Positions 1 through 63,700 of a stretch of DNA of 64,000 nucleotides are shown piece after piece (position 1 is the stretch's first letter; every line of letters starts with the position of its first letter). Origin of the DNA: Cyanidioschyzon merolae (Eukaryota); NCBI GenBank assembly GCA_000091205.1, contig AP006498.2; one strand, given 5' to 3'. The notes below the pieces were generated by a model, which saw nothing but the letters and a program-made list of their open reading frames with translations, was not told the origin of the DNA and ran no database searches. Made by a program: the position numbers and the translations under genes.

Positions 1-345
1 TACGACTCAACACGGTTTCTAGTTGCCTCCCGTAACTTCTCCACCCACGCATTCTTGATATGTTTAAGAAGACAGGCTTTCACCACCGTCACGTAGGACT
101 CTTGTTTTTCGTGCAGCTTCTGACGTGGGCTCTCCCTCTTCTGCGTCTTTGTCTTTTCCTGTTACTCTCCGCCGGGCACTGTTTTTTGTTTTTTTTTCTG
201 GCAGCCGGCGACACCTGCCTTCCAGGATCCTCCGCTTGCTTTTCCAGAAATTTCCTTTTTTCGAAAAAGAACACGCTTTGAACGCTTCTGTTATAAACTG
301 CGAAAAATCAACCGAATACACTCATTTGAGCGTTGAAACACGACT
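1..345 (-). mobile_element. F-family (TnpB/Fanzor-like element) 5-prime portion, truncated by the window edge
   Basis: Reverse complement of 1-280 aligns base-for-base with the 5-prime 280 bp of the long F copy at 28311 onward (shared ATG...GTCGA(G/C)GATCCTGGAGG start and the aaacatatcaag block). Minus ORF 64-321 and plus ORF 60-281 mirror ORFs 28286-28513 and 28311-28574. Confidence 0.6.
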
Positions 346-409
346 GAGATGAAATAATATATTTCGCTACGATTCCAATGCAAATACACGTTTTACGTTA
401 AAACAACAA

Positions 410-1100
410 GTCAACGAATGGTCAGGATTGCGTTTCCCTTCAACGGCGAGATGCGCGTCGTACCTCATGCCTGCCGGTAATGGAGGTGTGCATCTCGACC
501 GCACTATATGCAGCAAAGAACAGGACTAGCTACTGACTAGCAATGAGATGACCATTTCTTTCCCACTCTACAGTAAACGTTAAAAGGGCAAATGTTGCCA
601 GATCGTCGAAAGCTTACCTTCCAGGCGAAAGGTCCAGCGAGCCGGACGAGTCTCCGGGGGTTCGTGCTTCATGGCTTCCCCTTCGCCACCCCAGTGCCAG
701 GTGCTCTAGTGATATCTGACCAACTCATCCCCGAAGCGGTTTATTCCGGCATTAAGGGTGCTCAGGCAGCGTCTGGGCGTCGCCCTGGTCGCAGCGCATT
801 CGGTGGTACGCCTACGCTGTCCTGTCCCTGTGCAGCATCCGCTCCAGCGGTACAAGCGCTGCGGCGGGTGCTCACCGCAGGCTCGGCGCACGAAAGAACG
901 CACAAATCGACCAGTCTAGCGGAAAGGGAGTCTAAGTAATGGAACCTGGAAGCAGGGTGCACCATGACGGGCGCTTTCCCGAAAGCCGATATCCATCCCG
1001 CAATCCGTGATCCACGGTCGATGGATAGGTTTTCTCAGACCAGAAAAAGAACAAGACACGACGCACATCTCGCCGTTGAAGGGAAACGCGATCCTGATCA
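410..1100 (+). mobile_element. B-family non-autonomous element (MITE-like) with about 40-bp terminal inverted repeats
   Basis: 412-452 (ggtcaggattgcgtttcccttcaacggcgagatgcgcgtcgta) is the inverted complement of 1058-1100. Internal sequence is shared with 27390-28140 (inverted) and 63010-63700. Confidence 0.65.
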
Positions 1101-1149
1101 TGAACGTGTCGCTCTAACGGACAAGACGTGTTAGGGTTGAAGTGGCAGC

Positions 1150-1735
1150 AAGGTCTAGTCTTTCAATGCATTCGTGTTCCACTAGCCTCGTAGAGTATTC
1201 AAGTGGTTTTTCGCGGTTAACAGCAGATGCGTTCCAAGTGCGTTCGTTCTCAAAAAAAATAGAATGCAATGGTATGGACGTGAAAGTCGAGGATACCGGA
1301 GGACCGTCATTGCCGAGTTCGACAAGCAAAATGAGGAAATCCTCTTCCCGCCGACCACCTATCCAAGAAGAACAACGGGTGACGACAACGAAGACGATGA
1401 CGATGACGACGATGCGATATAGGCGAGAAAAGGTGTTTGCGCAACCGGTACGTTTACGAAACTGTGGTGGCACAGAGAGCACGAGTTCGAGGCGTCTTCG
1501 CAAAGCGAGGTTCCACCATCGGCCATAAATGCAAGGAGTTCGTCGACCGAGACCCCAACGTCGCCATCATGATCAGATAATATGCAGAGCGAAAGACTTT
1601 ACCCGAGGAACTGACGCGATCTGACTTGCGGGGCAGTCTCTCAGGGTCTCCGTACACAACCAGAAGCTGAAGCCGACAGCAGGGCCCGGTCCAGCACGGC
1701 AGGGAGGCGTCTGCGGGTAGATATCCATGTATACG
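1150..1735 (+). mobile_element. F-family internally deleted short copy
   Basis: Carries the 5-prime leader plus ATGGACGTGAAAGTCGAGGATACCGG start and a (GAC/GAT)n tract. The 3-prime part encodes ...KCKEFVDRDPNVAIMIR...EELTRSDLRG (degenerate RuvC-III region) and a 3-prime terminus like the other F copies. Confidence 0.6.
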
Positions 1736-3220
1736 ACATGGTCGTGGGACGTTTTTGTTCCACTGACAGGTGCGTTCGAGTTACATAGAACTGAACAGAT
1801 CCACGGACAAAGACGTATGCACTAATATTTCGGCTTCTTTAAACGACGCTGGTCTCTCCTTTCTCTCCGGCGCTGTTCATAGCAGTCGCACGATATTGGC
1901 GGTGGTGGTGTTCAGGCCCCGATTCCATAGCTGCCGACTCTTGTCTAGGCATTCCATGCACTGCCAAAAGTTGCCATCTTCGCTTCGCTTGCCATGTGCA
2001 CCTTCTCTCCACTCTGTTGCGGTGCGCCCGTCGCAGCGTTGCCGCTTGGCTGTGGTCTGGCGGTCACATGCCACCAGCATACTTCGTCATCTGACGGCTA
2101 GTCGCTGACACGTGAACGCTCGCGTCGACGCTCCGTAACTGTGTGTGGCGGGTCCAGAAGCCTCACCTCAGTGCCCTGCTCCGTTCTCGCACCAGCTGCC
2201 GTAACCTACGCTCACGGGCTTCTGCTGGGCGATCGCCTCGGCGAGAGCGCTCCCCGCAGCACACGCCTGCGCATGCTGCTCCCTTCTCTAGACGACTCGT
2301 CGAAGGCGATGCTCTCCAGACAGGAACAGGTACCGCAACGAACCTCCCAGGCCGGCGTGCACGTCGTGAACTCTCGATCTGTCTTCGCTCGCTTCGCGCA
2401 AAGCAGTGACGCACACTCTACTCAAAGTCATCGCAGCGATGAGTAAAGCCCGGGTCCAAGACCCCTTTCCATGCGCAGAGAAGAGACGGGCGCCTCTGAG
2501 CGCATGTTCCGGGAACTGCACCATACTGCCAATGAGTGCCGCTCCGTCGATAGCCCCACATAGAGGTGCCATTGCCTCTCAAGCGAAACTGCCTGTTCGC
2601 AGTGATAAGCTGCGTGACGTTTCAGCGAGAGTCTGTGAACGAGTCGTCACGGCCTCAACCCAGGTATTTTTCGTCGTTCATCCAGCGACGTGAAGTGCTG
2701 CACCCGAGTGTCGTCTTGAAGCAGAGGCATCGAACCTTGGCGCATGCGAGTGATTCGTGCACGCTACACTTAGGAATATGAGAAGCGCAGAGGCTTGTAC
2801 ACATGTCGTGGAAGAAGATGCCTTTTATGTGATGAATCCTTGCTCGTGGGTGCCGCGCATCATTCAAATGACGGTGACGTGACGAATGCGAGCGGCAGAG
2901 GGTCTACAAAGCAACTCCGGATGTGCGACCCTGATTCCTACAGCTACTTCCCAGTCCATGAGCCCGCACTGTTGCACTTTGCATCTACAGGCTGGAGATC
3001 TAAAACAATTGCGGAAAAATCTCAAGCCAGGAACTGCGCGAGCAGCTCTGTATTGCATTGATTCTAACACTGGCGCTGCATCAGGTGCCGCCGCTGTTTC
3101 TCTGCAAAGCTCTGCCGTGCGCTCTCTCTCGCTTTCTCTCTCTACAACCTCCTCTCCGCGCCCTTGGCCAAAACACGTGAACAGAGTGCTGGATGTCGAG
3201 CATAACGCCCCGTTGCGCAG

Positions 3221-3724: not shown

Positions 3725-3849
3725 CACCAACGCCGTTCGAAAGTCGAACGACGCCAACGGTGTACAATAGTGGCGAGTGACCCGCCCTAGAGGAGACGTC
3801 GCCAGTTGATGTGCGGACGCCATCCAATCTTTCTCGACCGGCCACGTAC

Positions 3850-4385
3850 AACTGCTTCCAACTTTTTCTCATATAATTCCACGTTGGGAGGTTCTCCCAC
3901 AAAATTCTCTCTTGTCTACTTTGGAGGTCTATTCTCCAGCACCGCACATCTCCTTATATCGATAGCTGCGTTAAGGTCTCGGTTCACAAACTCGATACGT
4001 TTCTTGCCATCATTGGTTGTACTTACTAATGCAAGTAGCCGTCGAACTTTTGCCCTCCTTTCCATTTGCTCGTCTGTCAGCGGTCCGTACTTTTTTATAT
4101 CCTCAGGGCTCCACTGACACTTTTACATTTCCACTCTCTGAGGTGTGCATCCGAGTTCATGGTGTGTACACGATGTTCGGAACTCATCTACAGGTATCGT
4201 GACGAAACGCCTTGCGCACTCCTTTTACGTTCTTGTCGATGGAGCTGGTGTAGTCCCTTTTTGGGTCTTCCATCGGCCTGCTCCGTACGCTACTACGAGC
4301 CTCTGACTTTCATCCTCCTTCAGGGCACTCAGCTGATTGAAGAAGTTTGCGAACGCCCGCTGCCTCCCACCGTATAGATGCATAC
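3850..4385 (-). mobile_element. F-family 3-prime-region fragment, left arm of an inverted pair
   Basis: Plus ORFs 3806-4117 and 4017-4202 match the minus-strand reading of 30145-30564 (GLFSxTAHxxIxIxALxSRxxNSIRFLP, HGVYTMFGTHL). Confidence 0.5.
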
Positions 4386-4489
4386 GCTGACGAGCCCACC
4401 GGGGCTTTGTATACCCTTTCTACAGCTCCTCGTTATGAGCAGCGCGAGTATTCATGAACTCCAGAAAAGCCTGAAAGTCCGCTCAACGG

Positions 4490-4910
4490 CTCGTCACGTT
4501 ACCGATAGATGAGTAACGAACGACTTTCGTCCACCATGAGTTGGGACGTACACTTCAGAAGGTAGAGATGGAAAAAGCCAGCGGGGCGCTCCGGAGATGA
4601 AAGAGTACGGAGAGCTGCCAGAGCAGGAAATTGCAGTGAGGGCACGAGGCCGTGGACTCCTTGCATTCATAAGTTCCACCAGCGGCGGAGCATGCAAGGA
4701 GTTCGTGAACCGAGACTTTAACGCAGCTATTAATATCAGAAGATGTGCAGTGCCGGAGACGAGACCCGAAGAGCTGACGCGATCTAATTTTGTGACACAG
4801 CCTCTCAGGCTCCAAGTGTACAGAGAGAAGCTGAAACCGATAGCCGAGGGCAGGTCGAAAAAGACTGGGAGATGTCTGCGCGATAGTAGATACACACAAA
4901 TACCGCCCAT
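4490..4910 (+). mobile_element. F-family 3-prime fragment retaining the RuvC-III motif
   Basis: ORF 4597-4938 reads GLLAFISSTSGGACKEFVNRDFNAAINIRRCAVPETRPEELTRSNFVTQPLRLQVYREKLKPIAEGRSKKTGRC, with D-x-NAA-x-NI. Confidence 0.6.
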
Positions 4911-6524: not shown

Positions 6525-6603
6525 GCCCGACCTACCCGAGCGGTCTTCAACAGCCTCCAGTTTGCAGTGTATTCCGAAAGACTTGCGAAAAAGGAGTTTC
6601 GTG

Positions 6604-6685
6604 ACGGCGACGCGATTCGAACGCGCGTGAGCTGTCGCTCATTGGAACCTTACTCCAACGCCTTGGACCACTCGGCCACGCCGTC
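6604..6685 (-). tRNA. tRNA-Leu(AAG)-like, type II with long variable arm
   Basis: The reverse complement GACGGCGTGGCCGAGTGGTCCAAGGCGTTGGAGTAAGGTTCCAATGAGCGACAGCTCACGCGCGTTCGAATCGCGTCGCCGTC folds by eye. There is a perfect 7-bp acceptor stem, a GCC/GGC D-stem with a GAGTGG loop, an anticodon stem TTGGA/TCCAA with loop GTAAGGT (anticodon AAG), a GAGC/GCTC variable arm, and a GCGCG/CGCGT T-stem with TTCGAAT loop. Position 32 (G) and the discriminator (C) are atypical. Confidence 0.55.
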
Positions 6686-10949: not shown

Positions 10950-11159
10950 GGCGAAATGCGGTCAAGAAGCCTGGAGACAATTCCGGGTGCGGGCTCTCCG
11001 CGAGCACAAGCCGACGTTCTGGCTCTCTGAATGGACAGGGTCCAGTACGGGATGGTGCCGGCTTCACTAGATGCCGATAACCATGATGCATTCGAGGAGC
11101 TCTGCTTCTAGTCTTCCAGGTAAATTATGCTGGATTCTGCAGGTTCGTATCATCAAAAG

Positions 11160-11676
11160 CTTTTTTACGGTTTATAGTGAATGCATTCGAAGTGCGTTCA
11201 TTCGAAGTGTAAAAAATCCATAGGAAATATATGGACATGGAGGTCGAGGATCCTGGTGGACCCCCATCGCCGTGCTCGACAAAGGAAACAAAAAAAGTCC
11301 TCTTCTCGCTGGCCATGGATCGAAGAAGAGCGCATGACGGAGAAGAACAGGGGGAATAGGCGAGAAAAGGTGTTTGCCGGACGGTACGTTTACAAAACTC
11401 TAGTGGTACAGGGGGCACGAGTTCCAGCTATCCTTGCGTTGATGAGTTCCACCATCGGCGGCAATAGAAGTATGGAGCTCGTGAACCGCGACTTCAAAGC
11501 TGCCATCAATATCAGACGATACGCGTTGCTAAAGACGAGACCCGCGGATCTGACGCGATCCAACTTTGCGGGACAGCCTCGCAGGGCCTAACTTTACAAG
11601 CAGACGCTAACGTCGATAGCATGAGGCCCGTCTAAAAAGGCCGGGTGGCGTCCGCAGGTGGATATTCGTTTACCGA
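11160..11676 (+). mobile_element. F-family internally deleted short copy
   Basis: Conserved 5-prime leader (gcattcgaagtgcgttcattc) and ATGGAGGTCGAGGATCCTGGTGGACCC start. ORF 11181-11591 ends ...ELVNRDFKAAINIRRYALLKTRPADLTRSNFAGQPRRA. The conserved 3-prime terminus ggtggatattcgtttacc is present. Confidence 0.6.
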
Positions 11677-13395
11677 CTTATGTGTATGCTTTGAAACAAC
11701 ATCCCCAGGATGCATGATGGAGATCGATAGCCAGCTGCAGGACCTCAGTTCCCTTTGAAATGCTAAAACATTTCGTTAACTCCATGTTCAACTAGCCGTC
11801 TGGGACAGAGTCTTGATCCGATGAGCCCCTCGTGTATCGAACCTACCATGAGCACCGGCTGTGAAGCTAGATGCTTCGCCAGCGCAATTGTTTCCTCGAG
11901 ACAGAACAGCTCGGCTATACCTTTGCGGGTGTCGGCTCCAGTGCGCTGCTGCTCCCGCTGACGTGATGCGCAGCTACGGAAAAGCGATGTAGAGGCAGCC
12001 CCGATGACCGGGAGCGTTTGCCCATATGCGGAAACCTGGCTCAATGCCATCATCCCGCCCGACACACAAGCGGTATTACGCTTCCTGCTGCGCAGAGCAG
12101 TTCCGATGCAGCCAGCTGCTGGGAGTCTCTCCACGAGCATATTCGAGAACAGTTACGGAAAATTCATGAAAGACGCTCGATGAAGTGGAATATGGCTGTG
12201 AGCATGGCAGCAGTCAAACGCCAGAAGGCAAACGTGCCAGAATCCAACATAGAGAAGCGCGCTCAACAGTCTTTGCGTACAGCCCCGCTCCCATCTCTTG
12301 TCGCTGCTCATGCATGGCGTACGACGGGGTTGCGACGGTGCGCACCGAACTCCATCCAGCATGGTGGAACTGAGCGAGACATTTGGCAGCAGATGCACCT
12401 TCAGTTAGGTAAGCAGAGAAACAGACAGAGCCCGCCATTGACCGCGCTAGAAGATTCAGAAGTAGCTTGAAGAAGCTGCTCCGTCATCCCAGTTGCTTCT
12501 GTTTCCAACACAACAGGTCATACGCTCGCTCAGTGGAATCGCCATGAGGCACCTGTCCGCAGTGATCATTCTCTCCAGCTGCAAAGGACTCGGAGCACGC
12601 CAATTCTGTGCTTTCCCGAGATGGCAGCACAGCGTTCGGGATCACCGTTATCTGGATGACCCAGATCGTACGAGCATTGATGCCAGAGGAGGTCGACGGG
12701 TGGACTGTGCGTTCACTGCAGCCTTCGATCCGTCTGTTGACGTTTAGAAACGGACGTCGTCTGCCCAAGCACTCACGGCGGAGCACCTGCACCGAAGCTA
12801 CGGCACCCAATAAGTTGCATGCTGCCCTTTCCCGCCCGTCCGTCCGCGAATGCACGCTGCCAATGTTTTTCGTTTCAAAGAACGTTTACACTAACCAGTG
12901 ATACCCGACTGCAAGCTCGATATCAGCGATCGGAGAAGCGTTTGTCGTCCCGCCGACCTTCAGGCTCCATGACTTGCACTTCACCTCCGAGATACTGGAC
13001 ATTTATCACGCTGCCGATACGCGCAGTCGAGCAGGTTGCCGCAACGCTGTGTATGTTGACTCGGCGAAGGGGGCGGACGGGCGGCTGTCTCACTCAGAGG
13101 CAGCGCCCCGGACTCTGCATCATAACCTCTTTCTGTGTTCCGAACAACCCGAGACCTGCATACTCCACCAAAGCTCGGTTCTCCCAAATAGAACCACTTT
13201 GCATCCATACACCTAGATCGGGATAGATGTTTCGTCTTGCACTCAATACGCTAGCACCTATGTCAGAATGAATACGAACTGGATTACGAACTCGGGCGTA
13301 CTCTATAAAGCTTAAACCTCTTCCCGTTACCGCCAGCATCAGCCTTTGCGAATTTTTCCTGCAATTGCTTTTTCCTTGCATGTTATCTTCAGCTT

Positions 13396-14030
13396 TCAGT
13401 AGCTACGCTCTCGTGCCCATCTAGCTCCATTGTCAGCGGTCGATGGATGCCCATTGCAACGTGAAACTCCCGATTCCGCCGCTTCTGGTTGTATGCTATT
13501 CATGTCATGGACTGGAAAAAGGTTGCGGTCTACGCTTCGCTTGCTATTTCCATCTTCATCGCAACCAGCTTCGGTGCGTCTTTTGCAGCCGTGATACTTG
13601 GCTGTGGTCAGGTGTTCGCATATATCCACGATTTTTCCTCCTCCGGGAGCTGCTTACTTGCACATGAACGTTTGCTTCATCGCTCGGTTCATGCACTTGA
13701 CGGGTACAGCAGCCTCAACACAAGGCCCTGGTCCTTTTGCGCACCAGTACCCATATCCACTTATCACGAGCTTCTTCTGGGCAAGCCTTTTGGTGAGGTC
13801 CATATCTGCTGCATGCGCAAGGGTACGCTGTTCCATTCGATACAGAATTTGTGGAACGCGATTTTGTTCATGATGAAAAGAAAACCAGAAGGGATATTCA
13901 GACAGGCGAACAAGTCTAGACACTTAGATACGCCCATGCTGCTTTGGAGCAAAGCAGTGACACGCTCTCCGCTGGAAACCATCACCGCGATGATGGAGGT
14001 CCGAGTCCGATACCCTTTTCCATGAACACA
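13396..14030 (-). mobile_element. C-family relic (diverged TnpB-like remnant?)
   Basis: Minus ORF 13654-13923 reads ...ILYRMEQRTLAHAA...VPVKCMNRAMKQTFM, followed by Cys-rich CEHLTTAKYHGCKRRTEAGCDEDG (13396-13629). It is homologous to 22755-23111, 33278-33965, 43500-44110, 48100-48600 and 51335-51945. Confidence 0.45.
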
Positions 14031-14686
14031 GAAACGAAGGCAGCCTCTGGGAATGTATCCCGTGATATGTATCACGCTGCAGTGGAATCATATTTCTTGG
14101 ACGGCGACGATGAGAGGAAGTTTCTCTTTCGAACGGAGTCGATGATTGCACATGAGAAAATCAGGGAACTTTCTGCATGAACTTGTGGAGAAGCCTTCAT
14201 GGGCTGATGTCGAGCTTTTTCCCTCGTCAATCCACCGGCGTGAATCACGGCGCCTGCGAGTCCCTCTGAGGCAAAAACATTGAGATTTTGAAGAATGCAC
14301 GATCCGGCCATGCATCAGGGAAGGAAAAACAATGCGGAGCTCCTTGTACGCATGTCCTGGATAATTATATTGGTTATTTTACGAACCCGGTGTTCGACGG
14401 CATCGCGAATTATCCTGATGAAGATGCCGTGACGAATTCTAGCGCCAACGGGCCGAGGTAGTTTCTCAGAAAACGCGACCACGCATCCTAAACCTACGGA
14501 TGAATCGGCAAGCCCCAAGTGCTGCACTTCGAGTCTCGAACCTGCAGATATAAAAAACAGTTCGGAAAAATCGAAAGACAGGAATAGAACGAAAAAACTG
14601 TGTTCTATTTTAATCTGAAATTGGTGCAGCTCTTTTGAACGCCTGGACGGTCCCGAATACCTGTAGCGTGCCCAAAAGAAGCACTT

Positions 14687-20439: not shown

Positions 20440-21480
20440 GCCCCCATGGCCCGAACGGAGATCGTGCAGCTCAGTCGTCCATCGTTGCTATAGCCCTTGA
20501 ACTCGATTTCGTTCCGTCCCTGCCGCGTGTCATCGAATGCTTGTTCGCAGTGTATTGCAGGAGATCGAAATCGCTAAGCAATATGCCGCATAGATCTCGG
20601 ACGAATTGAATGTAGTATATATTCTTTCACTGAAGAGTGCAAGGAGGACTGCATTCTTCTTTCAGGTCAGTCGTACCACAGTACTCCGATAACAGAGGAA
20701 CACTGAAACAAAGAACTACATGCGCTCCGCGCCTTACATCGATATTATCAATGTGTGTTTGCAGTCCGTCGAAGAAACGCGACCCGTTGGTCACATTTCG
20801 GAAAGCAAAAGCGACGATGGTAGTCACCACGGGCGTCTGTGTGGCTCAACAGCTTGCTCGTGTGGTCCTGAATGCATTGGGATGCAATCCAGTAAAAGAG
20901 ACCTAGTTCACGCACGGCGTTCTTCCACACAAATCGCAACGAAAAAAAGTTCCTGGAACGTCGCGATCAGTATGAAGTACCCGGCGGTCGGTTTGTTTGT
21001 TCAGTCGGTGACACTTGCTTCGGACGAGAAGGTCGGATCGTGTATGAGTATTCGTGGGGCAGGGCGCCCATTTTATGTACAATCGAACTCGAATAGAACG
21101 AGGAAATCATAATCTGTTCTAGCTTTAGTGTATTCAAGTGGTGGCTCCAATTTCGCTCATAGAGAGGGCTCATATTAGAGCGCTTACGTTGTCGAATCAT
21201 TGAAGACTTTTCCCTGACGCCCGGCGACGCCCTTCAATTGGAAGACATGGTACTTCGCAAGTCCCGTTGCGTTCGAGCTTTTGTCGAATCGATCGAGGAG
21301 TAGAGCTGCTTTTCATTTCTCCGTACGCTCCGTGATTTAACCCCATCGAGGGAGTGTTTCGTATTGTGATACGTAATGACAGCTCCACTGGGTGAATCGC
21401 TGAAGCGTGCAGCACACGGTGACACACCAGGCCACATGTCGTCGTCCTTATGCAAGTCCTTCTCTCTCTAGGAAGGTACT
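20440..21480 (+). pseudogene. D-family: Tc1/mariner-superfamily transposase remnant (degenerate)
   Basis: About 1.0 kb homologous to 61500-62520. At 21200-21360 a frame reads LEDMVLRKSRCVRAFVESIEE*SCFSFLRTLRDLTPSREC. This is the degenerate counterpart of the DNxxxH...PxYxPxLxPxxE catalytic block visible in copy 2. Confidence 0.5.
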
Positions 21481-21985
21481 CGCCTAACGGCATAAACAAG
21501 TATGTTCTTTTGAAGAAACATGAAATTCAAGGGAAAGTTACGGACATGGATGTCGAGAATCCTGGAGGCCCGATGTCTCCGGATCCGAAAGAAAATATTC
21601 GCCTCCCCGACCATGGAGCGAAGAAGAGCAATTCATGACGACGACGACGATGATGACGACGATGCGATATAGGCGAGAAAAGTTGTTTGCTCGACGGTAC
21701 GTTTGCGAAACTGTAGTGGCACCGAGAGCACGAGTTCGAGGCATCTTCGCAAAGCTAAGTTCCACTATTTGCAGTAAATGAAAGGATTTCGTTTACCGAG
21801 ACCTCAACGCCGCGATCATTATCAGACAAATGTGCAGTGCGAAAGACGATACCCGAGGAACTGACGCGATCTAACTTCGCAGGGCACTCTCTCAGGCTCA
21901 AAGTGTGTCTAGATAAACTGAAACCGATAGCACGTGGCTGGTCAAAAAAGGCTGCGAGGCTTCTCAGGGTGGATATTCATTTACT
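21480..21985 (+). mobile_element. F-family short copy fused downstream of the D relic
   Basis: ATGGATGTCGAGAATCCTGGAGGCCC start and a (GAC/GAT)n tract. ORF 21837-22175 reads EELTRSNFAGHSLRLKVCLDKLKPIARGWSKKAARLLR, and the terminus is ggtggatattcatttac. Confidence 0.6.
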
Positions 21986-22754
21986 CTATGGTCCTGGGAT
22001 ATTTTCTGTTTCACGGATCACATGTATACAGCGACTAGTTCAGATGCCGATCGGCGTCCTGTCCAACGCTAACTACACCAGTTCCAGGATAAAATGTGAC
22101 ATGGAACTATTCGCTCTGTTTCTGTCTTGCGATTTCAACCGAACTATTTTAGATGTCCAGGCTCTGCGTTCGTAGTCTGGCAATAAGCGCTTACGGATTC
22201 ATACGCAGTTTTTGGGATTTTCGGTCGACCATCCGCAGTGGCTCCATCGATGTCGTGGCGCTGGAATTCGTTACGCCACAGGATTCAAGATCATTCGCTA
22301 CGCCCTCGAACAGGGATTTGTAAAATAACCTGTATTATAATCCAATGGATAAGCAGAAGCCTTGACTCTTCTCTCCCAGTTGCGTACAGCATGCTCAAAT
22401 CAAAAGACTTTAGCATTTTTGGATCTTTCAGTGCCAATGGAACTCGTGAGTGCAGCAGTTCGCCCCACTGGATAAACGAGGAAAAGAGTGCAACGTTGTC
22501 GTCGACTATGGGCTTGTTCACAAACTCATATCAAATGCATACGGACATTTTCACGTCATAGATACGATTGCGTTCAAAAGAAATATCGTTTTCCCTTAAT
22601 GTCCATCGACGAGACGGGATTCGACAGCAGCATGAACGCGTTCAGAAAAAATCTGCCCCGAGAGCATCCGCCGCTTTTTATGTATGGGAAAGGACCAGGA
22701 ACCGGGACTTGAGTCGTCAAAGCGATTACATTCAGTGGATAGTTCGTCAGCGCT

Positions 22755-27389: not shown

Positions 27390-28140
27390 TACACTGATTT
27401 TTTCGATGACAAAACGTTTACATTGACCTTGCATCCCGGATTGCAGGATAGATAATGGTAATCAAAGAAGTGTCCAACATGATGCACCTTACCTCCAAGT
27501 TCCATGACTTATTCTCGGATGTATTGGTCGTTTCGTATGTTCTATCGTGCGCCAGGTACCTGCTTTGAGCACCCGCCTTGGTACCTAAACTGCTGTTACG
27601 GATGCTGCACGTAAACAGAGCGGCTTTGCCATACCACTGAGCGCTTCGGCTGGAGGAATGCTTCACCTAACATGGAGTCGGGATCCATTATAATCCTGGG
27701 TGCCGGTAAGCTGTGCAGACAGACGTACTGTCTGCGGCAGCGCGAAGCGATGTACAAGGAGTCCACTGCGACCGGGGCGATCCCCAGACGCAGCGTACCC
27801 GCTCCTAGTCTTGGAATAAACTGCGTTTTGGACGAGCTGCTCAGGTCCATTCACAGCACTGGGCGCTGGAAAGAGCATGAATGACTGGTCTAGCAGACAC
27901 GTCCGGCTCGCGAGACCCTCCTCCTATAGGGTAAACTTTCGACAGTGTGGAAAGCGTGTCCGCCTTTTAACGTTTATCGTAGATGGGGAAAGTAATCATT
28001 TTATTGTCGCTACTTAGTGGCTTCTTTCTGTTCTTCGTTCTGAATAGAGCGCTCGATGCGCGAACCTCCATACCTGGCAGGAACTGAACATGTCGCGTAT
28101 CTCGCAGATGGAGGGAAACGCGATCCTGACCGCTCCTTGC
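27390..28140 (-). mobile_element. B-family copy, inverted relative to the copy at 410-1100
   Basis: The TIR at 28100-28140 (ggagggaaacgcgatcctgacc) is the inverse of the 412-435 TIR. 27850-28000 matches 550-830 and 63050-63290. Minus ORF 27418-27666 (GAQSRYLAHDRTYETTNTSENKSWNLEVRCIMLD) matches plus ORF 63301-63618. Confidence 0.6.
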
Positions 28141-28239
28141 CCTATTTCTCTAAAGGGCGAGTTGTATTCTCGTTAACTTCATAGCCAAGTATAGTTTTCA
28201 ATTCGATTGCTTTTCAACCCTCAAGTAAAAATATTCGAT

Positions 28240-30656
28240 TGACTTTTCGCAGTATATAACAGAAGCGTTCAAAGAGCGTTCTTTTTCAAAAAAAATAAAA
28301 ATGAAAAGTTATGAGAAAGCAAGTCGACGATCCTGGAGGCCCAGTGTCGCTGGGTGCCAGACAAAAAAACGAAAAACTGTGCCTAGTCCAGAGGAACAGG
28401 AAAAGGCAAAGAAGCAAGGGCAGGAAGACCGACGTCAGTGGCTGCAAGAAAGACGACAGTACGACGAGACGGTGGGGAAAGCCTGTTTTCTTAAACATAT
28501 CAAGGATCCGCATAGAGAAAAATCGCGAGAGGTCATTAGGAACCGTGTCGATTCGTACTCCAGGAGGAGTATAAAGTCGTCCTCAGGACTAATGCATCTG
28601 GTGAAGGGGATGTACGAAGACGTGATGGACATGGAAACAGTCGAGGTTCCGGAAGAATTCTTCGACAAGACCTATATTCGTCACCTGATGCTTGGTAGAG
28701 CGGAAGCGCAGAGGGAAAAAGAGCGGATACACGTCCTCACGAAAACCATCCTTTTTACAGCTTCGAGGGTGCTCGAAACAAGGGTGACCGGGATATTCAC
28801 GACAATGGGGCGATGAAGTAGATCACGAACCTGAAGAACCATTTGACAGTGAACCTCGAACGTTTCATGAAACGCACCGTGTTTGCACTCTACTCGGGCC
28901 TATCTCGCAATGGAAAATGGGCGATTATCAATGGCATCACGAAAGATCGCAAGCGTGAAGATGAAGTCGAATTCGTCGACAAGAAGGCATCAAACGAGAG
29001 CACGAATGAAGCTTCTGTAATCCGTGCGGCTATAGAAGAGCATCGTGCAGTCCTGGAGCTGGCGAATCCAACAGACAAGATATCAGAGTTGAAAGAAGCT
29101 AAGGAAAGATACTATCGCCTCGTCCTGCGCTATTTCGTGTTTCTGGACCAAGAACTCGAACGCAAGGCAGAGGTGAAGCAGCGTGAGGAAAGCAATGAAG
29201 AGTGGGAGAGACGGAAGGCTTTCCTACTGGGGAAGCGCCTCAACGTGGTTCCAATGTGCAACATCAAGTCACATTTTGTGACTATCCACTCCAGAATCCT
29301 TCACGGCATCATGGAGGAGATTAGTCCGGAGTTCGATGTTAGCAGGGAGGAATTCTCCGGTGAAAACCGGGAGACGTACTGGAAGAATATCTTCGATTTC
29401 AAACATCTCAAAGTGAGCAAGCAAAAGGTATTCAATGGGATGATCGAAACCGATGGGGTAGCCTTGTGTGTACACTATCGGCGGTTGAAAAGAGATCGTC
29501 CAGTTCCACCCTCGGCTTCGCCCGTGACGAAGGATGAAGAAAAGAAGGAGGCGGATCCTGCGACGCAGGAGGTATAGGATAAAGACCTTGTCGTTGACGT
29601 GACGAAGGATGAAGAAAGGGAGGAGGCGGATCCTGCGACACAGGAGGTGGAGGATAACGACCTTGTCGTTGACGCGGTGAAGCATGAAGATGAGAAGGAG
29701 GCGGATCCTGTGATGCAGGAGGTAGATGGGAACGACTTTGTCGTTCGTGCTGACCCCGGAAACACAAATATCGTAATCATCGCAGTATCCAAGCGTGCGG
29801 AAGACGGTACCGACGGTAATTTTCGTCAGAGACATGCGTCTTTTGAGGTTCTCGAAAATGATATATTATCGAGAATCCGGCACAATGAATGCAAGGAAGA
29901 AAATTGAGACATGGAATGCAGGAATGAAGGATCACCTGGAAACTTTGAGCGAGGTGACTAGCCGAGAGGCGGACTTTCAAACTTTTCTGAAATTCATGGA
30001 AGTTCGCGTTGCTCATTGGGATGCGCTGTGGAATGAGTATGCAAAGCCCCGGTGGGCTCGTCTGCGTATGAATTTGTATTTTGGGAAGCAGCGTGCATTC
30101 GCGAACTTTTTCAATGAGCTGAGCACCTTCAAAGAAGATGAAAGTCAGAGGCTCGTAGTGGCGTACGGAGCAGGGCGCTGCGCGCCCAAAAAAGTATATA
30201 CACCAGCTCCAACGACAAGAACGTACAAGGAGAGCGCAAAGCGTTTCTTTACGATACCAATAAGATGAGTTCCGAACATCGTATACACACCATGAACTGG
30301 GGTGTACATTTCAAAGGGTCGAGATGGAAAAGTGCCAGCGGAGCCCTGAGAATATAAAAAAGTACGGAGCGCTGACAGATGAGCAAATGGAAAGGAGAGC
30401 GGAAGTTCGGGACTACTTGCATTCGTAAGTACAATCAATGGCAAGAAACGTATGGAATTTTTGATCCGGGACTTTAACGCCACAATCAATATAACAACAT
30501 GTGCGGTGATGGAGAATAGACCACCAGAGCGAACACGAGAGAACTTTGTTGGACAACCTTTCAAAATGAAACTATATGAGAAAAAGTTGAAACCAGTAGT
30601 AGGTGGCCGGTCGAGAAAGACTCGATGGTGTTTGAACGTCAGTTGGAGACTTCTTG
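28240..30656 (+). pseudogene. F-family long copy: disrupted TnpB/Fanzor-like RuvC-nuclease gene (about 790 codons over five frame-shifted ORF pieces)
   Basis: ORF pieces are 28301-28816, 28843-29577, 29599-29907, 29795-30268 and 30452-30661. [17 protein letters not shown] is a RuvC-I-like GxDPG block. LVVAYGAGRCAPKK...PAPTTRTYKE is a post-RuvC-II-like region. The C-terminus GLLAFVSTINGKKRMEFLIRDFNATINITTCAV carries D-x-NA(A/T)-x-NI, the RuvC-III signature. There are in-frame stops at 29578 and about 30400. Confidence 0.6.
29524..29748 (+). repeat. 75-bp tandem repeat x3 inside the F long copy
   Basis: Units at 29524-29598, 29599-29673 and 29674-29748 encode ...[22 protein letters not shown] / [25 protein letters not shown] / [29 protein letters not shown]. 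The last unit ends in the RuvC-I-like block. Confidence 0.7.
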
Positions 30657-30838
30657 ACTAGGGCGGGTTTCTCGCCACTACTGTACACCGCTGGCGTCGT
30701 TCGACTTTCGAACGGCGTTTTGCGATGGTTTGATCGTTGCAACGCTCCAGGAGCAAACAAGGCTTGGAAACGTGCACGCTTTTCATGGAAAGAGCGCAGC
30801 GCTGCTTGCAGAGAGAGCCTTTGATGCGGTAGAGGTGC

Positions 30839-38228: not shown

Positions 38229-39464
38229 ATGATCGGCTTCGTTGGTTCTGTTAGCTCTCTCGGCGCTCGTGTTTCATCCTTCACAGCAAGCTGTAGTGCA
38301 AGCAACAGCTGCTCGGTCGTAGCTGCTCCCCGACGGGCGTTCGACCTCCGCGCGGCTGAGGAGAAGCCACAAACCAGCAGTTCGAGTGCAGCGGGATCGT
38401 CTTCTGCTTCGAGTAGTGGCGCGGGATCATCGGAGCGTGCGGCGCCATCAGCAGTGTCGTCACCCCCTGCGGCGGCGACGTCCACGCAAAGCGGGGCAGC
38501 GAAGATGCCCACGATGACTGCACTGAAGACGGCAGCAAATAGGAAGTTGGGTGAGGTTACACAGGCTCGCTTGCGCAAGGTCGGAGACTCCGTCACCCCA
38601 AGTTATCGCCAGATCGATAGCTTCCGTGTTCCAGCGTATCCGATACCCGGGAAAGATGACGAAGTGTCTCGCCGCACGGAGCGTATGTACATGATCCTGC
38701 GCCAGATCTTTGGATACGGTCACCTCTTCGAGCGAGACGGTGAGGAAATGGATAAGCTCCAGAGTTGCTATATCAATGGTGAGCTGAGCACGAAGGATTT
38801 CGTGAGAGCCGTCGCCAAGTCGGAAACATACAAGGAAAAGTTTTGGAACAACCGGCCGCCGTTCGGACGCTACGGCGCGGTGGAGCTCGCCTACAAGCAT
38901 CTGCTTGGCCGCCGCACCTTCGACGCGAAGGAGAACGCAGCTGCGCAAGCGGTGTACCACGCACACGGCTACGACGCAATGATCGATTATATTATCGACA
39001 ACGAGTATGATCGGGCGTTTCCGTTCCGCAACGACGGCAGCGACAACGTGCCGCACTGGCGTGAACCAGCTTGGTTCATGGGACGCCGCCCCGAACCCCA
39101 GGCACTACGTGGCGGTCTCGAGCGCGCGATGAGCGGTGCCCGTGGTGCGATGCTCTACCAGTACCGCGTCCGCCTCGGCTCCCAGAATATGGGCGTTGTG
39201 GCTGGAGGCTGTCCGCCGCCCGTGAACCTCAAGAACAAGACCGACGAGCCGGTGTTCCGTGTGGTCACGGCCGGGTATCGCGAGCCGGCAGTGAACAGCG
39301 GCGGGCTGGGCTACTCCGTGGGCAGGTCCTACACGCGCCAGAACAAGTACAGCACCGTGGCGCGCTCACAGCGCACGTATCTAGTGCCACTGAGCGAGCT
39401 GAACAACACCATCACTCGCATTCACCGCTCGGGAGGCTACATCCGCACAGTGGAGCGAGCGTAA
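38229..39464 (+). CDS. phycobilisome rod linker polypeptide (PBS-linker domain plus C-terminal CpcD-like domain), nuclear-encoded with Ser/Ala-rich transit peptide
   Basis: The PBS-linker core spans MYMILRQIFGYGHLFERDGEEMDKLQSCYINGELSTKDFVRAVAKSETYKEKFWNNRPPFGRYGAVELAYKHLLGRRTFDAKENAAAQAVYHAHGYDAMIDYIIDNEYDRAFPF. The C-terminus YRVRLGSQNMGVVAGG...RTYLVPLSELNNTITRIHRSGGYIRTVE is CpcD-like. The N-terminal 90 aa are Ser/Ala-rich with Phe at position 4. Confidence 0.75.
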   Translation: MIGFVGSVSSLGARVSSFTASCSASNSCSVVAAPRRAFDLRAAEEKPQTSSSSAAGSSSASSSGAGSSERAAPSAVSSPPAAATSTQSGAAKMPTMTALKTAANRKLGEVTQARLRKVGDSVTPSYRQIDSFRVPAYPIPGKDDEVSRRTERMYMILRQIFGYGHLFERDGEEMDKLQSCYINGELSTKDFVRAVAKSETYKEKFWNNRPPFGRYGAVELAYKHLLGRRTFDAKENAAAQAVYHAHGYDAMIDYIIDNEYDRAFPFRNDGSDNVPHWREPAWFMGRRPEPQALRGGLERAMSGARGAMLYQYRVRLGSQNMGVVAGGCPPPVNLKNKTDEPVFRVVTAGYREPAVNSGGLGYSVGRSYTRQNKYSTVARSQRTYLVPLSELNNTITRIHRSGGYIRTVERA

Positions 39465-43437: not shown

Positions 43438-44780
43438 TCTTTCCGCAGTCATCAACACCAGCCTTGGCGGATTCTCTGTGACTGCTTCCATTAGATTTCT
43501 CGTAGCTACGACTTTAAATACGCCGGTCGATCACCTCCCTCAAGATCTGTCGTCAGAGCTCGACGGATATTGATGCCAGCATTAAAGTCCCGATTTCGCC
43601 GTCTCAGGCTGGTGCCAACGCATGCCATGCCCAGGCAAAAGTTGCGATCTTCGCTTTGTCTGCCATCTCCATTTTCTCTCCAGAGCAGCATCGATACGCC
43701 CTTCGCAGCAGCGACTCTTGGTAATGGTCACGCTTTTCCTGTTTGTCCAATACGCTTCCTCCTCTGAGCGCCGCCCTGTGGCGCGTGAACGCTTGCCCCA
43801 ACGCTCACAGCACATGCACGTGCTGGGTACAGAACCATCCCGCAAGTGCCGTCCTCCATCCACGCGCCCGGTACCGTACCCTGTGATCGACAGCTTATTC
43901 CGGGTAAGTCTGCGGCAGGTGCTCTGCCCGCTGAACACGAAAGCGCACGCCACTCTATTCGACAAAGGATTTGTGGATCGCGATGTTGTTCACGATGAAA
44001 CAAGTTCCGGACGGGAAACCCGCAGCAGCCAGAAGACTGAGGAGCTTCGAACAATCCACGCTACACTGGTGCAACGCGGTGACGCACTCTGCGCTGGGGG
44101 CGAGCGCTGACGTCAGTGCGAGTCCAAGACACTTCTCCGTGCAAGCAGAAGCGCTGGAGCCTCCGAGAGCCTCCGAGAGCCTCCGAAAGCCTCCGAGAGC
44201 CTCCGAAAGCCTCCGAGAGCATACCCCCAAGAGAGATATCGTGCTGTTGTCGAACCCTATTTCGTGGATGGCCACACAGAGTAGAGAATAACTCCTTCGG
44301 ACGGAATAGATCGTTCGGCGTTCGCAGTCCAGTCCGGAATCGGCACAAGCTCGCGAAGGAGTCCTCAAGGGAAGGCGTCGAGTTTTTTGGTCGCCAGTCC
44401 ATCAGAGCAGATTCCTACGCGCTCGGGTAGCCTCGAAACCAGAGAACTCTAAAAATTGAAGAATGCGTCATTTGAGCATATTACTCGTAAGGAAGGAGTA
44501 TGAGTGGCGTCTTCTGCGTATGAATTGGATGATGGTATCGGTTATTTTACGAACCCTTTTACGGGGACGTCGCGAATGACCGTGACTCTGGGGATGAAAC
44601 GCAGTCCAGCGGGAACGAGTCGAAGGGGTCATTCCGGAAAGACCACCGATGATCCTGGAGTTATATGAAAATCCCAAACCGATTGCTGCACTTTGCATGC
44701 CGAGGACGTGCAGCTAAAAGAATTTCGGGAGAATTGCAAGGCAGGAAGAGAGCGAAGAGTTCAGTGTTTCATTTGAATCT
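43438..44780. repeat. 1.3-kb direct repeat, copy A (composite of F-like RuvC-III fragment, C-family relic and minisatellite)
   Basis: Near-identical to 51274-52575, with only a handful of substitutions plus extra minisatellite units. Identical ORFs appear in both copies: 43506-43691 = 51341-51526, 43622-44110 = 51457-51945, 43582-43965 = 51417-51800. Confidence 0.85.
44157..44220 (+). repeat. 10-bp minisatellite (GCCTCCGAGA/GCCTCCGAAA), about 6 units
   Basis: gagcctccgagagcctccgagagcctccgaaagcctccgagagcctccgaaagcctccgagagc. The paralogous position 51995-52018 has only 2 units. Confidence 0.8.
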
Positions 44781-44868
44781 GGCTCGGCTGTTGTGCACTC
44801 GTCCAGAGGAGGCACCGAAATGCCTCGGAGAACGCTCGCACTGCACTCATCTTAAGGGACTCGTGGCA

Positions 44869-48099: not shown

Positions 48100-48600
48100 T
48101 GGGGGCTTCTCAGCGATTGTTTCCGCTTCCTCTCTCCTGTCCACGCCATTCGGTACACTAGTCGCTACAGTTCCGTTATCAGCTGTTGGAAGATGTGGAT
48201 GGCAGTGACAAAGACCCGATTTCGCTCCTTCTCGCTGTTGTCGACGAATGCAGTGCAGAGGCGGCAGTTACAACCTGCGCTTCTGTTGCTATTTTCAATT
48301 TTTTTGTTTACAGCCTCGGTTCGCCCTTCGCAGCAGTGGTACTTGACTGCCGTCACGTGTTCTCGTACGTCCATCTCACTTTTACCTCGAGCACCGCCTT
48401 GTGGTGCGTGACGGTTGCTTCATCACTCAGAACATGCCGTGGGCTGGTACGGAGGACTCCCCATAATGTCCTTCTCCGTTTCCGCACCTGGTCCCGTACC
48501 TAACGATTACGGACTCCTTCTGGGCGGTACAAACGGCGAGTGCTCTGTTCCCTGCACATGCGAGCGCATCCTGTTCCATTCGATAGTTGATGTTTAGAAA
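48100..48600 (-). mobile_element. C-family relic
   Basis: Plus ORFs 48186-48503 and 48415-48597 share H.R..HRSVH..DGY...LLGK...LFH-type frames with the other C copies. Minus ORF 48165-48374 is Cys-rich (KYHCCEGRTEA...SAGCNCRLC). Confidence 0.4.
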
Positions 48601-52575: not shown

Positions 52576-52804
52576 GAAGGTTGTAAAGTGCGATTGGTCA
52601 ACGATACTTGCACTGCCCATCAAGAGAGTTTTACGGATCATCGTTTCCCCACCGCTGCCAAAAATTTGCAACTAAGCATTGCGAGCTGGATCATGTTCTA
52701 CATCGTGTAAAATCGATCCGCACTTGTCCAACAGAGGCATTCGTCCGTGCCCCTGAACGAAAGCCTCGCCTGGAATTCTCAACGTGAAGGTTCTCCCGTC
52801 CGTG

Positions 52805-61499: not shown

Positions 61500-62520
61500 C
61501 GCTTGGCATAGCTGCACTTCCTGTCGTTCAACGCAATGCTGTTCCGTACCCGCTGCGTATCATTGAATGCTTATTCGATGTTTATAGCAAGAGATCGAGA
61601 TCGTTATGCAATGCACCCTACATACCGCAGACGGGTTGCCTGTATGGTACACTCTGTACTGAGGAGTGTACCGGGAACTGCATGCCTCCTTCAGGTCAGT
61701 CATACCGCATTACTTTGATGGCAGAGGAACGCTGAAAGAAATAACTAGATCTGCTCCGCGCCGAAAACTGGTATTGCCAAAGTATGTTTGCGGTCAATGG
61801 TACAAAAACAACCCGTTGATCTCTTGAGGGAAAGCAAAAGCTGTGATAGGAGCTGCTAGGACTGTCTCTGTTACTCAGTAGCTTGTTCGCTTGATCCTGA
61901 AAACACTGGGACACAGTCGCAAGAAAAGGCAATCTAATTCAGCACCATCTTGCACGGAAATCGCAACGAAAGCGTTCCTAGAACGTTGCGATCGGTATGA
62001 AGCTGAGCAACGCCCGTGTATTTCAGTCGATGTGGCTTGCTTCGGATGAAACGGTCGGAGCGTACATAAGTATTTGCTGGGCGGGAGCCCGGCGTATGTA
62101 CGATCCAACACGAAGAGAATGACGACATTATCATCTGTTCTAGGTACAGTGTATGCATATGGCGGCCTCAGTTTCGCTTATAAAGAAGGCTCATACATCA
62201 GGACCCTTTTCGTCGAATTATTCAAGATTTTCCTCCTCACGTCTGGCGGCGTCATTTTGTTGGACAACGTGGCGTTTCACCATTCCCCTTGCGTTCGAGC
62301 TTTTGCAGATGCGGTTGGGGTAGAACTGCTTTTCACTCCTTCGTACGCTCCTTGGTTAATCCCAGTCCAGGAGTGTTTTCTATCATGAAACGTAATGAGC
62401 GCTCCACTGGGCGTACTGATGAAGCGTTCAGCACACGGTGACACCAGGGCACATTTCGTCTTTCCTCCGCAAGTCCCTGTCTCTCCGGGAGGGTTTTCCC
62501 CTAAGGGCATAAAAAGGTGC
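61500..62520 (+). pseudogene. D-family copy 2: Tc1/mariner-superfamily transposase C-terminal remnant
   Basis: ORF 62074-62388 reads ...GGVILLDNVAFHHSPCVRAFADAVGVELLFTPSYAPWLIPVQECF. DNxxxH is followed 36 residues later by the E of PxxE, the Tc1/mariner DD(34-37)E third catalytic block (compare fqqDNapcHts...lpPYSPDLNPIE). Upstream frames are degraded. Confidence 0.55.
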
Positions 62521-62996
62521 GTTTATTTGAAGGAATAAAAAAATCCGAGGGAAAATTAAGGACATGAAAGTCGGGGATCCTGGCGAGCCGTCATCGCCAG
62601 CTGCCGGAAAACAACGAAAAACTCCTCCGCCCGCCCACCATCGAGCGAAGAAGGACAAGTGACAAAGAAGAAAACAGAAGTTTAGCTAGAAATGGTGTTT
62701 CCTCCAACAGAACAATGAATAGGCTGTTGTAGCATATACAGCATGAGTTCTGGGAGTCCTTCCAAAGGTGAATTCTATCAGAGGCAATAAACGCATGGAG
62801 TACGTGAAGCGAGACTTTACGCTGCTACCAACATCATACGCTATGTGGTGCTGTATACGAGACTACAGGAGCTTAGGCGATATGAGTTTGTAAGGCAGCC
62901 TCTCAGGGACTTGGTGCAAAGAGAAAAACTGAAGCCAATGGCAGGAGGGCGGCCAAAAAGGCTGCGAGGCGTCTTCGGGTGGGTGTCAATTTGCCA
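62520..62996 (+). mobile_element. F-family short copy fused downstream of D copy 2
   Basis: GGACATGAAAGTCGGGGATCCTGGCGAGCC start. A 3-prime part encoding ...RDFTLLPTSYAMWCC...LRDLVQREKLKPMAGGRPKRLRG (degenerate) and the terminus gggtgggtgtcaatttgcc. Minus ORF 62428-62658 mirrors the other copies (DDGSPGSPT). Confidence 0.55.
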
Positions 62997-62999
62997 AGG

Positions 63000-63700
63000 A
63001 TAGCAAGAACAGAAACTAAACACTTACTAGCTGCCCGATAACGATTTCTTCCCGCCTCTACAGTAAGCGTTGAAAGGGAGGGAAGGGTTCCGTATATTCG
63101 AAAGTTTACCTTCTAGGCGGAAGATCCCCCGACCCGGACGAGTCTGCCGGGCTTACGCTCCGTTTGAATCTGCAGTGACGAAAGCTGTGATGAAGTTTGA
63201 GCAGCTCGTCCGAAATGCAAGTTATCCTGGGACTCGGAGCTGATATGCTGCCTCTGGATGTCGCCCTGGTCGCAGTGGACTCCTAGTATATCGCTTCGCG
63301 TTGCCGCAGGCAGTATGTCTGTCTGTACAGTTTCCAGGCTCCCAGAATGATAATGAATCCCAACCTGTGTCGGATGAACCACGCCTCGGTCCGACGCCTC
63401 AGCAGTATGGCAAAGCCGCTCTATCTCCGTTCTGCATCGGCATCAGCGGTATGGGCGCTTTCGCTGGAGCCCAGAGCAGGTACTCGGCACGCGACAGAAT
63501 GTATGAAGCGACCAGTGTGTCCAAGAAGAAGTATCGGTTATGGAACTTGGAGTTAAGGTGCCGCGTGATGGACGCTTTCCCGAAAGCCAAGACCCATCCG
63601 GCAATCTGGAATCCATAGTCTATGTAAATATTCTGTCAAAGAAAAAAGATCGACGCGATCGCTGCCTCTGTTGGATGCTGCCGCCCTCGATGTTTCCCAT
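63000..63700 (+). mobile_element. B-family copy, 5-prime-truncated, abutting the F copy
   Basis: 63050-63290 aligns with 550-830, and 63540-63690 aligns with 940-1080. ORF 63301-63618 matches the minus ORF 27418-27666. The right TIR is degenerate. Confidence 0.5.

Follow-up and report, generated by a model that had tools for sequence, protein, structure and literature searches.

An apparent inverted-repeat element beside Fanzor1 sequences of Cyanidioschyzon merolae and its probable origin from two head-to-head CMe-1 copies

A repeat called B lies at the left end of a 64,000-nucleotide stretch of Cyanidioschyzon merolae DNA (contig AP006498.2 of assembly GCA_000091205.1; the whole stretch is termed the window). 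It is placed between two 5' ends of a second repeat, F, which face each other, and is bounded on both sides by an inverted repeat. The question was whether B is a transposon with terminal inverted repeats (TIRs) that settled beside F, or whether B and F are parts of one element. The initial annotation, made from the letters of the window, had described B as a TIR element and had offered two readings of its position, an insertion preference of B for the left end of F and a role of B as the structural left arm of a complete element.

The window carried long and intronless ORFs with eukaryotic domains. The ORF at 38229-39464, a nuclear phycobilisome-linker gene, showed 100% identity over 411 aa to XP_005537833.1 of C. 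merolae 10D, which identifies the window as nuclear DNA of this strain. Self-comparison of the window showed that the repeats between the genes were old and diverged, with a mutual identity of 65-85%. An Rfam search of the whole window (gathering threshold) and of positions 1-2000 (E ≤ 5) produced a tRNA-Leu at 6601-6685 as the sole match, and none was found in B or F. B was rejected as a structured-RNA gene or protein-coding unit: it had no Rfam match and no consistent ORF, and its copies were 65-70% identical to each other. A reading of B as an opposite-strand SINE, with an A-run after its end and truncation from the opposite side in many copies, was not needed for the finding.

A published description of the same genome provided the names for both repeats. 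CMe-1A is the Fanzor1 family of C. merolae with a consensus of 3169 bp (~3.2 kb) and ~150 copies, which show ~80% identity to the consensus, while TE-N2_CMe is present in ~70 copies genome-wide (Bao & Jurka 2013, Mob DNA 4:12, PMC3627910). The 5' 635 bp of CMe-1A matches the whole of TE-N2_CMe with 95% identity, and the composite was handled as one family in the published consensus; both repeats were described as lacking TIRs, with target-site duplications (TSDs) given as undetermined and the class as unknown (PMC3627910). The CMe-1A consensus (3169 bp) was taken from the supplement of that paper and mapped onto the window. Because of this mapping, B is identified by sequence as TE-N2_CMe, F as the Fanzor1-bearing part of CMe-1 and B together with F as CMe-1A. 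The arrangement of B next to F is real and far above chance, yet it is the CMe-1A/TE-N2_CMe architecture already published in 2013. The details added here to the published family are the starts of B-less copies at consensus ~646-672, the palindromic nature of both F ends and a local head-to-head pair that mimics a TIR element. The elements of the window were as follows, with consensus positions referring to CMe-1A.

1..504, minus strand: Fanzor1 part of a CMe-1A copy (copy 1), consensus ~1150 down to ~640, cut by the left window edge.
418..461, minus strand: left arm of the apparent TIR, consensus 733-690 of copy 1.
505..1048, minus strand: TE-N2_CMe part of copy 1 (B1), consensus 635-4 with 246-358 deleted, from consensus mapping and nhmmer.
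1051..1766, plus strand: F1b, an internally deleted CMe-1 derivative without B, head to head with copy 1.
1058..1101, plus strand: right arm of the apparent TIR, consensus 690-733 of F1b.
3731..4508, minus strand: CMe-1 3' fragment, consensus 2389-3169 (85%), forming a second inverted pair with the fragment at 4476.
4476..4887, plus strand: CMe-1 3' fragment, consensus 2677-3092 (74%), the other arm of that pair.
11109..11673, plus strand: short-subfamily F without B or LE core.
21498..22017, plus strand: short-subfamily F without B or LE core.
27404..30717, plus strand: complete CMe-1A copy, consensus 1-3169 (79.7%).
62514..62999, plus strand: short-subfamily F without B at its 5' end.
63005..63638, minus strand: solo TE-N2_CMe (B3), consensus 4-635 (81.3%), no TIR, from consensus mapping and nhmmer.

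Copy 1 aligned with the consensus on the minus strand in two pieces, consensus 1150-359 at window 1-801 (78.9%) and consensus 245-4 at window 795-1037 (80.0%), followed by a T-run at the 5' start of B1 (1038-1048). Its Fanzor1 part holds a remnant of the N-terminal coding region, the 5' UTR, the 'LE core' and the 5' palindrome. The copy that is cut by the window edge is a full-length element, as its Yellowstone orthologue (locus L040, 90.6% identity over window 56-549) shows by its full-length F. Neutral DNA of the Yellowstone Cyanidioschyzon and of 10D is about 90% identical. F1b consists of consensus 683-947 (window 1051-1315, plus strand, 79.9%) joined to consensus 2833-3084 (window 1468-1714, plus strand, 63.4%), and carries in addition a short-subfamily 3' tail (GGTAGATATCCATG...); its positions 1257-1766 were similar to 21523-22017 in the self-comparison. 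Compared with a B-less F, F1b is shorter by ~37 nt at its 5' end, and its start at consensus 683 lies 13 nt away from the TE-N2 5' start of copy 1. The complete copy is divided into a TE-N2 part (B2) from 27404 to ~28045 and a Fanzor1 part (F2) at ~28046-30717; in the latter the ORF is frameshifted, the LE core occupies 28090-28133 and a predicted hairpin closes the 3' end (z = -3.9). At the right end of the window, the short F copy at 62514 is preceded by another 1-kb repeat (61527-62514, similar to 20497-21497), and the 3' end of B3 adjoins the 3' end of this copy (~62975-63000), as the initial annotation had noted for the third B. Its borders for B at 410-1100 were too wide, for the real TE-N2 part (consensus 4-635) occupies ~505-1037 and the arms outside it lie in F; the supposed 65-bp and 50-bp spacers on both sides are conserved F sequence (consensus 734-805) which occurs in every full-length copy.

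The relation between B and F was examined in the window together with metagenome relatives of strain 10D. A single metagenome scan, run with an alignment of 6 Fanzor sequences, produced 80 loci, which were reduced to 40 independent loci by collapse at ≥95% identity; solo B copies are under-counted because these loci were ascertained through F. B was found directly upstream of F, with the same junction and the same orientation, at 18 of the 39 independent F 5' ends. This constant junction supports the role of B as left arm, as do the place of B in the first 635 bp of the published CMe-1A consensus and the end-to-end match of that consensus with 27404-30717. At the remaining F 5' ends, homology was lost ~44 nt upstream of the segment that had been read as a TIR. 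The recurrence of the junction at 27.4-30.7 kb was also borne out: window 1-653 aligns unbroken with the reverse complement of 27895-28557 (72%), and because this alignment is continuous the two junctions are homologous nucleotide for nucleotide. In contrast, the statement that B sits at the 5' terminus of F in three of three cases was selective, as the copies at 11109, 21498 and 62514 have F 5' ends without B.

Copy starts formed two clusters, one at consensus 1-6 (21 copies) and the other at consensus 646-672 (~20 copies, including 8 that start at 646-648), and solo B copies ended at consensus 634-661. Because of these discrete clusters, B (consensus 1 to ~640) and F (~646 to 3169) are separable units, which also occur alone and abut each other in the composite. 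What preceded the B-less F copies at the boundary was a LINE-like element, a shared 'module C' or a segment containing an inverted B fragment; with forward B included, the F boundary at ~646-648 is joined to at least four different sequences. The arrangements of LINE with F and of module C with F were duplicated as units at paralogous loci, which shows that 5' modules travel with F.

The junction of B and F is a family-level feature, which probably derives from one ancestral tandem fusion that was then multiplied as a unit. In nine complete composites, pairwise p-distances averaged 0.325 for B and 0.27 for the 5' UTR, with values of 0.29-0.36 across the junction and no step at the border. The B-linked F copies showed a mean distance of 0.234 against 0.205 for the B-less ones (p = 0.002) and are therefore older as a class. 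The absence of a divergence step at the junction, together with the greater age of B-linked copies, favours a single fusion that was amplified as a unit, and the flanks upstream of the B start were unique at every locus. Counted against this explanation is the coding part, which was less diverged (0.20) than B (0.33) with no codon-position bias. The trees of F and of B were star-like and the B-linked F copies did not form a clean clade, which counts against a single fusion. Solo and F-linked B showed no site diagnostic of either group at a 70% threshold, in an under-powered comparison of 15 with 8 copies. Correlating the ages of the B and F parts copy by copy (n = 9) was uninformative, as the correlation was weak even between the two CDS halves.

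The alternative that survives best is repeated, independent end-targeted insertion, either of F after the 3' end of B or of B at the 5' boundary of F, guided by a target motif or hairpin, so that composites would have arisen many times. Both units exist alone with discrete ends, and the same F 5' point, within a few nucleotides, serves as the junction with B, inverted B, the LINE-like element and module C. F1b faces the 5' start of B1, and away from this locus the short F 3' end meets B3 end to end (62999/63005); the varied sequences at the F boundary and the abutting elements fit some form of end-targeted insertion. The star-like trees, in which B-linked copies are not monophyletic, agree with repeated origins, and both F ends are palindromic like those of elements with hairpin-guided site choice. 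However, 18 loci share one junction and one orientation, and the divergence step at the junction is absent. The greater age of B-linked F as a class is not predicted by random pairing, the published consensus treats the composite as a single family (PMC3627910), and the LINE and module C 5' modules were duplicated together with F. Repeated insertion is judged unlikely on this balance, and the preference of B for the left end of F that the initial annotation had considered is the less favoured reading, again with no divergence step and with older B-linked F. There is an equally small chance that the F 5' palindrome boundary (~646-648) is an active joining hot spot and not the fossil of one fusion. 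If so, it would point to hairpin-guided end-targeted insertion or to capture of 5' modules by a Fanzor1 element without a known transposase.

A single inherited fusion, as preferred here, accounts for B next to F, and the inverted repeat around B1 has a separate origin. The repeat pairs 418-461 with 1058-1101 over 44 nt with 93% complementarity, and none is expected by chance (0/100 shuffles). Both arms correspond to consensus 690-733, a segment outside the TE-N2 part (1-635) and within the Fanzor part. This segment was found once upstream of every F with a recovered 5' end (27 copies, with or without B) and is the best-conserved non-coding block of the F 5' region, with a core of CGCCGTTGAAGGGAAACGCGATC (GTTGAAGGGAAACGCGATC). 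The 44-nt core is embedded in a decayed inverted repeat of ~200-260 bp (256-461 against 1258-1058, 70%) and stands out from it solely through its conservation, the highest among the non-coding blocks of F. The segment reads as a TIR at this locus only because F1b sits head to head with copy 1. The arm was absent wherever an examined B had no F 5' end beside it, as in B3 and other solo copies, and the distal 'arm' of B2 was barely recognisable. Overall, B1 alone was flanked by the repeat among ~23 B copies of at least 430 nt. No TSDs were visible next to 418 or 1101, where the flanks run on as F homology. The 41-bp TIRs of the initial annotation are thus a true inverted repeat whose length was underestimated and whose status as a TIR did not hold, and the repeat does not make B a TIR element, since it belongs to the 5' region of F and is inverted solely at this locus.

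A local inverted duplication or fold-back of the F 5' end round B, or a functional invertible or cruciform structure, would also produce the F(-)-B-F(+) palindrome. A second inverted pair of CMe-1 fragments lies 3 kb off (3731-4508 and 4476-4887), and a 1.27-kb segment upstream of F occurs in opposite orientations in loci L001 and L031, both of which speak for this explanation. Against it, the two inverted arms were 70% identical, no closer than unrelated copies, which is about the value to be expected of independent copies that each share ~79-80% identity with the consensus; in addition, the right copy (F1b) belongs to a short subfamily with a different 3' tail, so that the pair is not a recent inverted duplication. 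No comparable palindrome was found in the 40 other loci, and an origin of this kind is very improbable. That B is a genuine MITE-like TIR DNA transposon with TIRs of 41-44 bp, which prefers the F left end or forms the F left arm, has practically no probability left, for its one support, the 93% complementary repeat at B1 with none expected by chance, was seen in just 1 of ~23 B copies, has arms of F sequence with further F homology continuing outward from each, occurs as a single arm upstream of every F including the B-less ones and disagrees with the published absence of TIRs in TE-N2_CMe and CMe-1A (PMC3627910), and the copies examined refuted a TIR transposon or MITE with no TIRs in most of them and no TSDs.

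Taken together, two decayed CMe-1 copies placed head to head, the origin of the apparent TIR from their F 5' regions and one inherited fusion of B and F form the explanation that is likely to be right as a whole, a judgement that relies mostly on the identification of the elements and on the origin of the 'TIR'; the single fusion, amplified as a unit, is given a somewhat lower probability. The locus is also a caution that two head-to-head copies of an element without TIRs can mimic a TIR transposon.

Proteins of the F repeat were characterised from remnants in the window and from intact homologues. In the ORF of the longest copy (28.1-30.7 kb), ADPGNTN, DEFRTS and RDFNATINI succeed one another as the RuvC-I, RuvC-II and RuvC-III motifs do in TnpB/Fanzor proteins. 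At the motif level, the window remnants and intact homologues presented the aspartate of RuvC-I, the glutamate of RuvC-II and the aspartate of RuvC-III with a Zn-binding insert (ADPGNTN ... VDEFRTS(Y)THHELGC...C ... NRDFNAAINIR). A stitched pseudo-protein had 38 homologues, all of them except the most distant from hot-spring metagenomes, and the intact homologue P0004 had 752 aa. No significant Pfam match was obtained for the F ORF pieces, the stitched pseudo-protein or the homologues P0004, P0005 and P0040. A distant NCBI homologue, P0041 (E = 9e-25 to P0004), matched PF07282 (Cas12f1-like TNB) with 22 bits, below the cut-off of 26.3. A PDB sequence search with a profile of six sequences produced no match, and the AlphaFold2 model of P0004 with 38 homologues (pLDDT 39.6) was too poor for use. 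The CMe-1 protein belongs to the same sequence family as the homologues found here and was assigned to Fanzor1 by Bao & Jurka (PMC3627910); the family assignment follows their analysis, to which the present evidence adds at the level of motifs.

Both ends of F are marked by palindromes. The 5' palindrome GCGCGGTCGATACGCGC lies at consensus 647-663, and F ends exactly at the foot of a hairpin of 10-12 bp, GGCGTCGTTCGA CTT TCGAACGGCGTT. In a variant of this hairpin, AACGTTTTTC TTTT GAAAGGCGTT, the pairing is kept with other bases. The 3' ~230 nt are the best-conserved part of F. RNAalifold on the 39 F 3' ends produced no consensus structure; the 39 copies were folded singly because the register of the terminal hairpin shifts between variants, and the hairpin was then predicted in most of them, 18 with z < -2. 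The outer ends of CMe-1A, CGATGACAAAACG and GAAAGGCG, do not form an inverted repeat, in agreement with an element without TIRs.

The window and related loci yielded neither a transposase nor a TSD or an empty site, the Fanzor1 ORF being the sole ORF seen in F, and for this reason the mechanism of mobilisation can only be inferred. The composite would move with the TE-N2 5' end and the 3' hairpin of the Fanzor unit as its outer ends while the two inner ends are skipped, and it may be mobilised in trans by an enzyme that the element does not encode. By homology, the Fanzor1 protein would be an RNA-guided RuvC nuclease and not the transposase. TnpB and Fanzor proteins are RNA-guided nucleases whose guide (omega) RNA comes from the 3' end of the element. 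By analogy, a putative guide RNA may arise from the conserved hairpin-ended 3' terminus of CMe-1 and be read into the flank. How CMe-1, an old and abundant element without a transposase, moves and comes to carry varied 5' modules at one boundary bears on the persistence of Fanzor nucleases in eukaryotes.

Comparison with known systems placed the window elements closest to the published CMe-1A. They align with its consensus end to end at ~80%, the typical identity reported for the family, and share the host organism, the solo repeat as the first 635 bp, the absence of TIRs and a single-exon Fanzor1 ORF, with no essential difference. MCi-2, a Fanzor1 element of Mucor circinelloides, has variable 5' regions (PMC3627910). 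Its constant Fanzor-bearing 3' part and alternative 5' modules that define subfamilies resemble F with B, module C and the LINE-like element, but identity among the MCi-2 copies is 99% and TSDs are present, whereas among the C. merolae copies it is 65-85%, with no TSD detectable.

Elements of the IS200/IS605 type (TnpA Y1 and TnpB) are the bacterial relatives of Fanzor elements. CMe-1 is like them in having no TIRs, no evident TSDs and palindromes at both ends, as well as a TnpB-like gene that passes at its 3' end into a conserved right end of predicted structure, the place from which a guide RNA would arise. It differs in that no Y1 transposase or conserved target tetranucleotide was found, and in being an element of 2.5-3.2 kb in a eukaryotic nucleus, so the likeness is one of ends and does not establish membership. 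Finally, Helitrons are recognised by a 5' TC and a 3' CTRR, by a hairpin that lies shortly before the 3' end and by a target site between A and T. The hairpin at the 3' end is present in CMe-1A while the Helitron terminal motifs are not: 5' TC, 3' CTRR and Rep/Hel are absent, and the element begins with CGATGAC and ends with GAAAGGCG(TT). The resemblance is to tandem or composite non-autonomous elements that arise by end skipping, such as the end-bypass chimeras of Helitrons, in which, as proposed for TE-N2_CMe and the Fanzor unit, two abutting units with ends of their own move as one through their outer ends.

The short copies of F, the Fanzor1 unit of CMe-1, formed a separate subfamily in which consensus ~788-1013 was fused to 2833-3088 (consensus positions refer to CMe-1A) and which had its own 3' tail, GGTGGATATTCATTTAC...GAAACGTTTTTG. 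This subfamily also occurred in the metagenome relatives of strain 10D, at several loci. In the window, stretches of the short F copies and the repeat designated G were located as follows:

1468-1766, short F copy
11404-11673, short F copy
21717-22017, short F copy
62746-62999, short F copy
20497-21497 and 61527-62514, G, 1 kb, 69% identical

At both of its sites, G was found immediately 5' of a short F copy. The entire G+F unit was duplicated (20497-21982 matching 61527-62992), which is a further example of a 5' module moving together with F.

Other sequences were also found at the F 5' boundary. A LINE-like element with an RVT_1 domain, ending in ...GCGACTAGTTTG, adjoined this boundary at three paralogous metagenome loci (L004, 400-3395; also L011 and L017), and a fragment related to it abutted the boundary in L001 (9265-9667). 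Palindromes were identified at both ends of the Fanzor unit in loci L001-L086, at consensus 646-662 and within the terminal ~30 nt at the 3' end of F, for example at window 30680-30717. A 3'-terminal hairpin was predicted in most of 39 F copies, with z < -2 in 18, and occurred as two sequence variants with the pairing preserved in both.

Close to the 5' end of F, the consensus 690-733 block was present at three window positions:

418-461
1058-1101
28090-28133

Its near-invariant core, GTTGAAGGGAAACGCGATC, was found in 27 copies that were ~30% diverged elsewhere. This core might act as a promoter element or be bound by a protein.

B (TE-N2_CMe, consensus 1-635) may itself be a mosaic. Many B fragments retained the 5' start with variable 3' cut points (consensus end 175-326); fragments were located at window 11842-11941 and 12881-13004 and at many other loci. 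A discrete sub-piece, consensus 84-256, was found by itself in at least five loci, and consensus 246-358 was missing from the window copy B1.

A second inverted CMe-1 pair, pointing apart, consisted of two 5'-truncated 3' parts:

3731-4508, minus strand, consensus 2389-3169
4476-4887, plus strand, consensus 2677-3092

The truncated ends overlapped at ~4476-4508 and arm-to-arm identity was ~70%.

Two other repeats were present in the window:

43439-44781 and 51274-52576, direct duplication, 1.34 kb, 96.6% identity
1955-2498, 13506-14232 and 48275-48973, also 23185-22999, further diverged family, ~65% identical

The direct duplication was far younger than every other window repeat and overlapped 162-aa ORFs (43622-44110 and 51457-51945). 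One copy of the ~65%-identical family lay ~190 bp downstream of F1b, an internally deleted, B-less CMe-1 derivative.

The Fanzor ORF contained a 75-bp tandem repeat coding for acidic repeats (window 29523-29745; consensus ~2117-2196). Its copy number varied among element copies and many alignments were therefore split at consensus 2117/2196. Among the nine complete B+F composites, divergence between copies was 0.20 in the F coding part compared to 0.27-0.33 in B and the 5' UTR, and the F coding part showed no codon-position bias (0.198, 0.202 and 0.213). Gene conversion among copies or uneven mutation could account for this lower coding divergence without codon bias.
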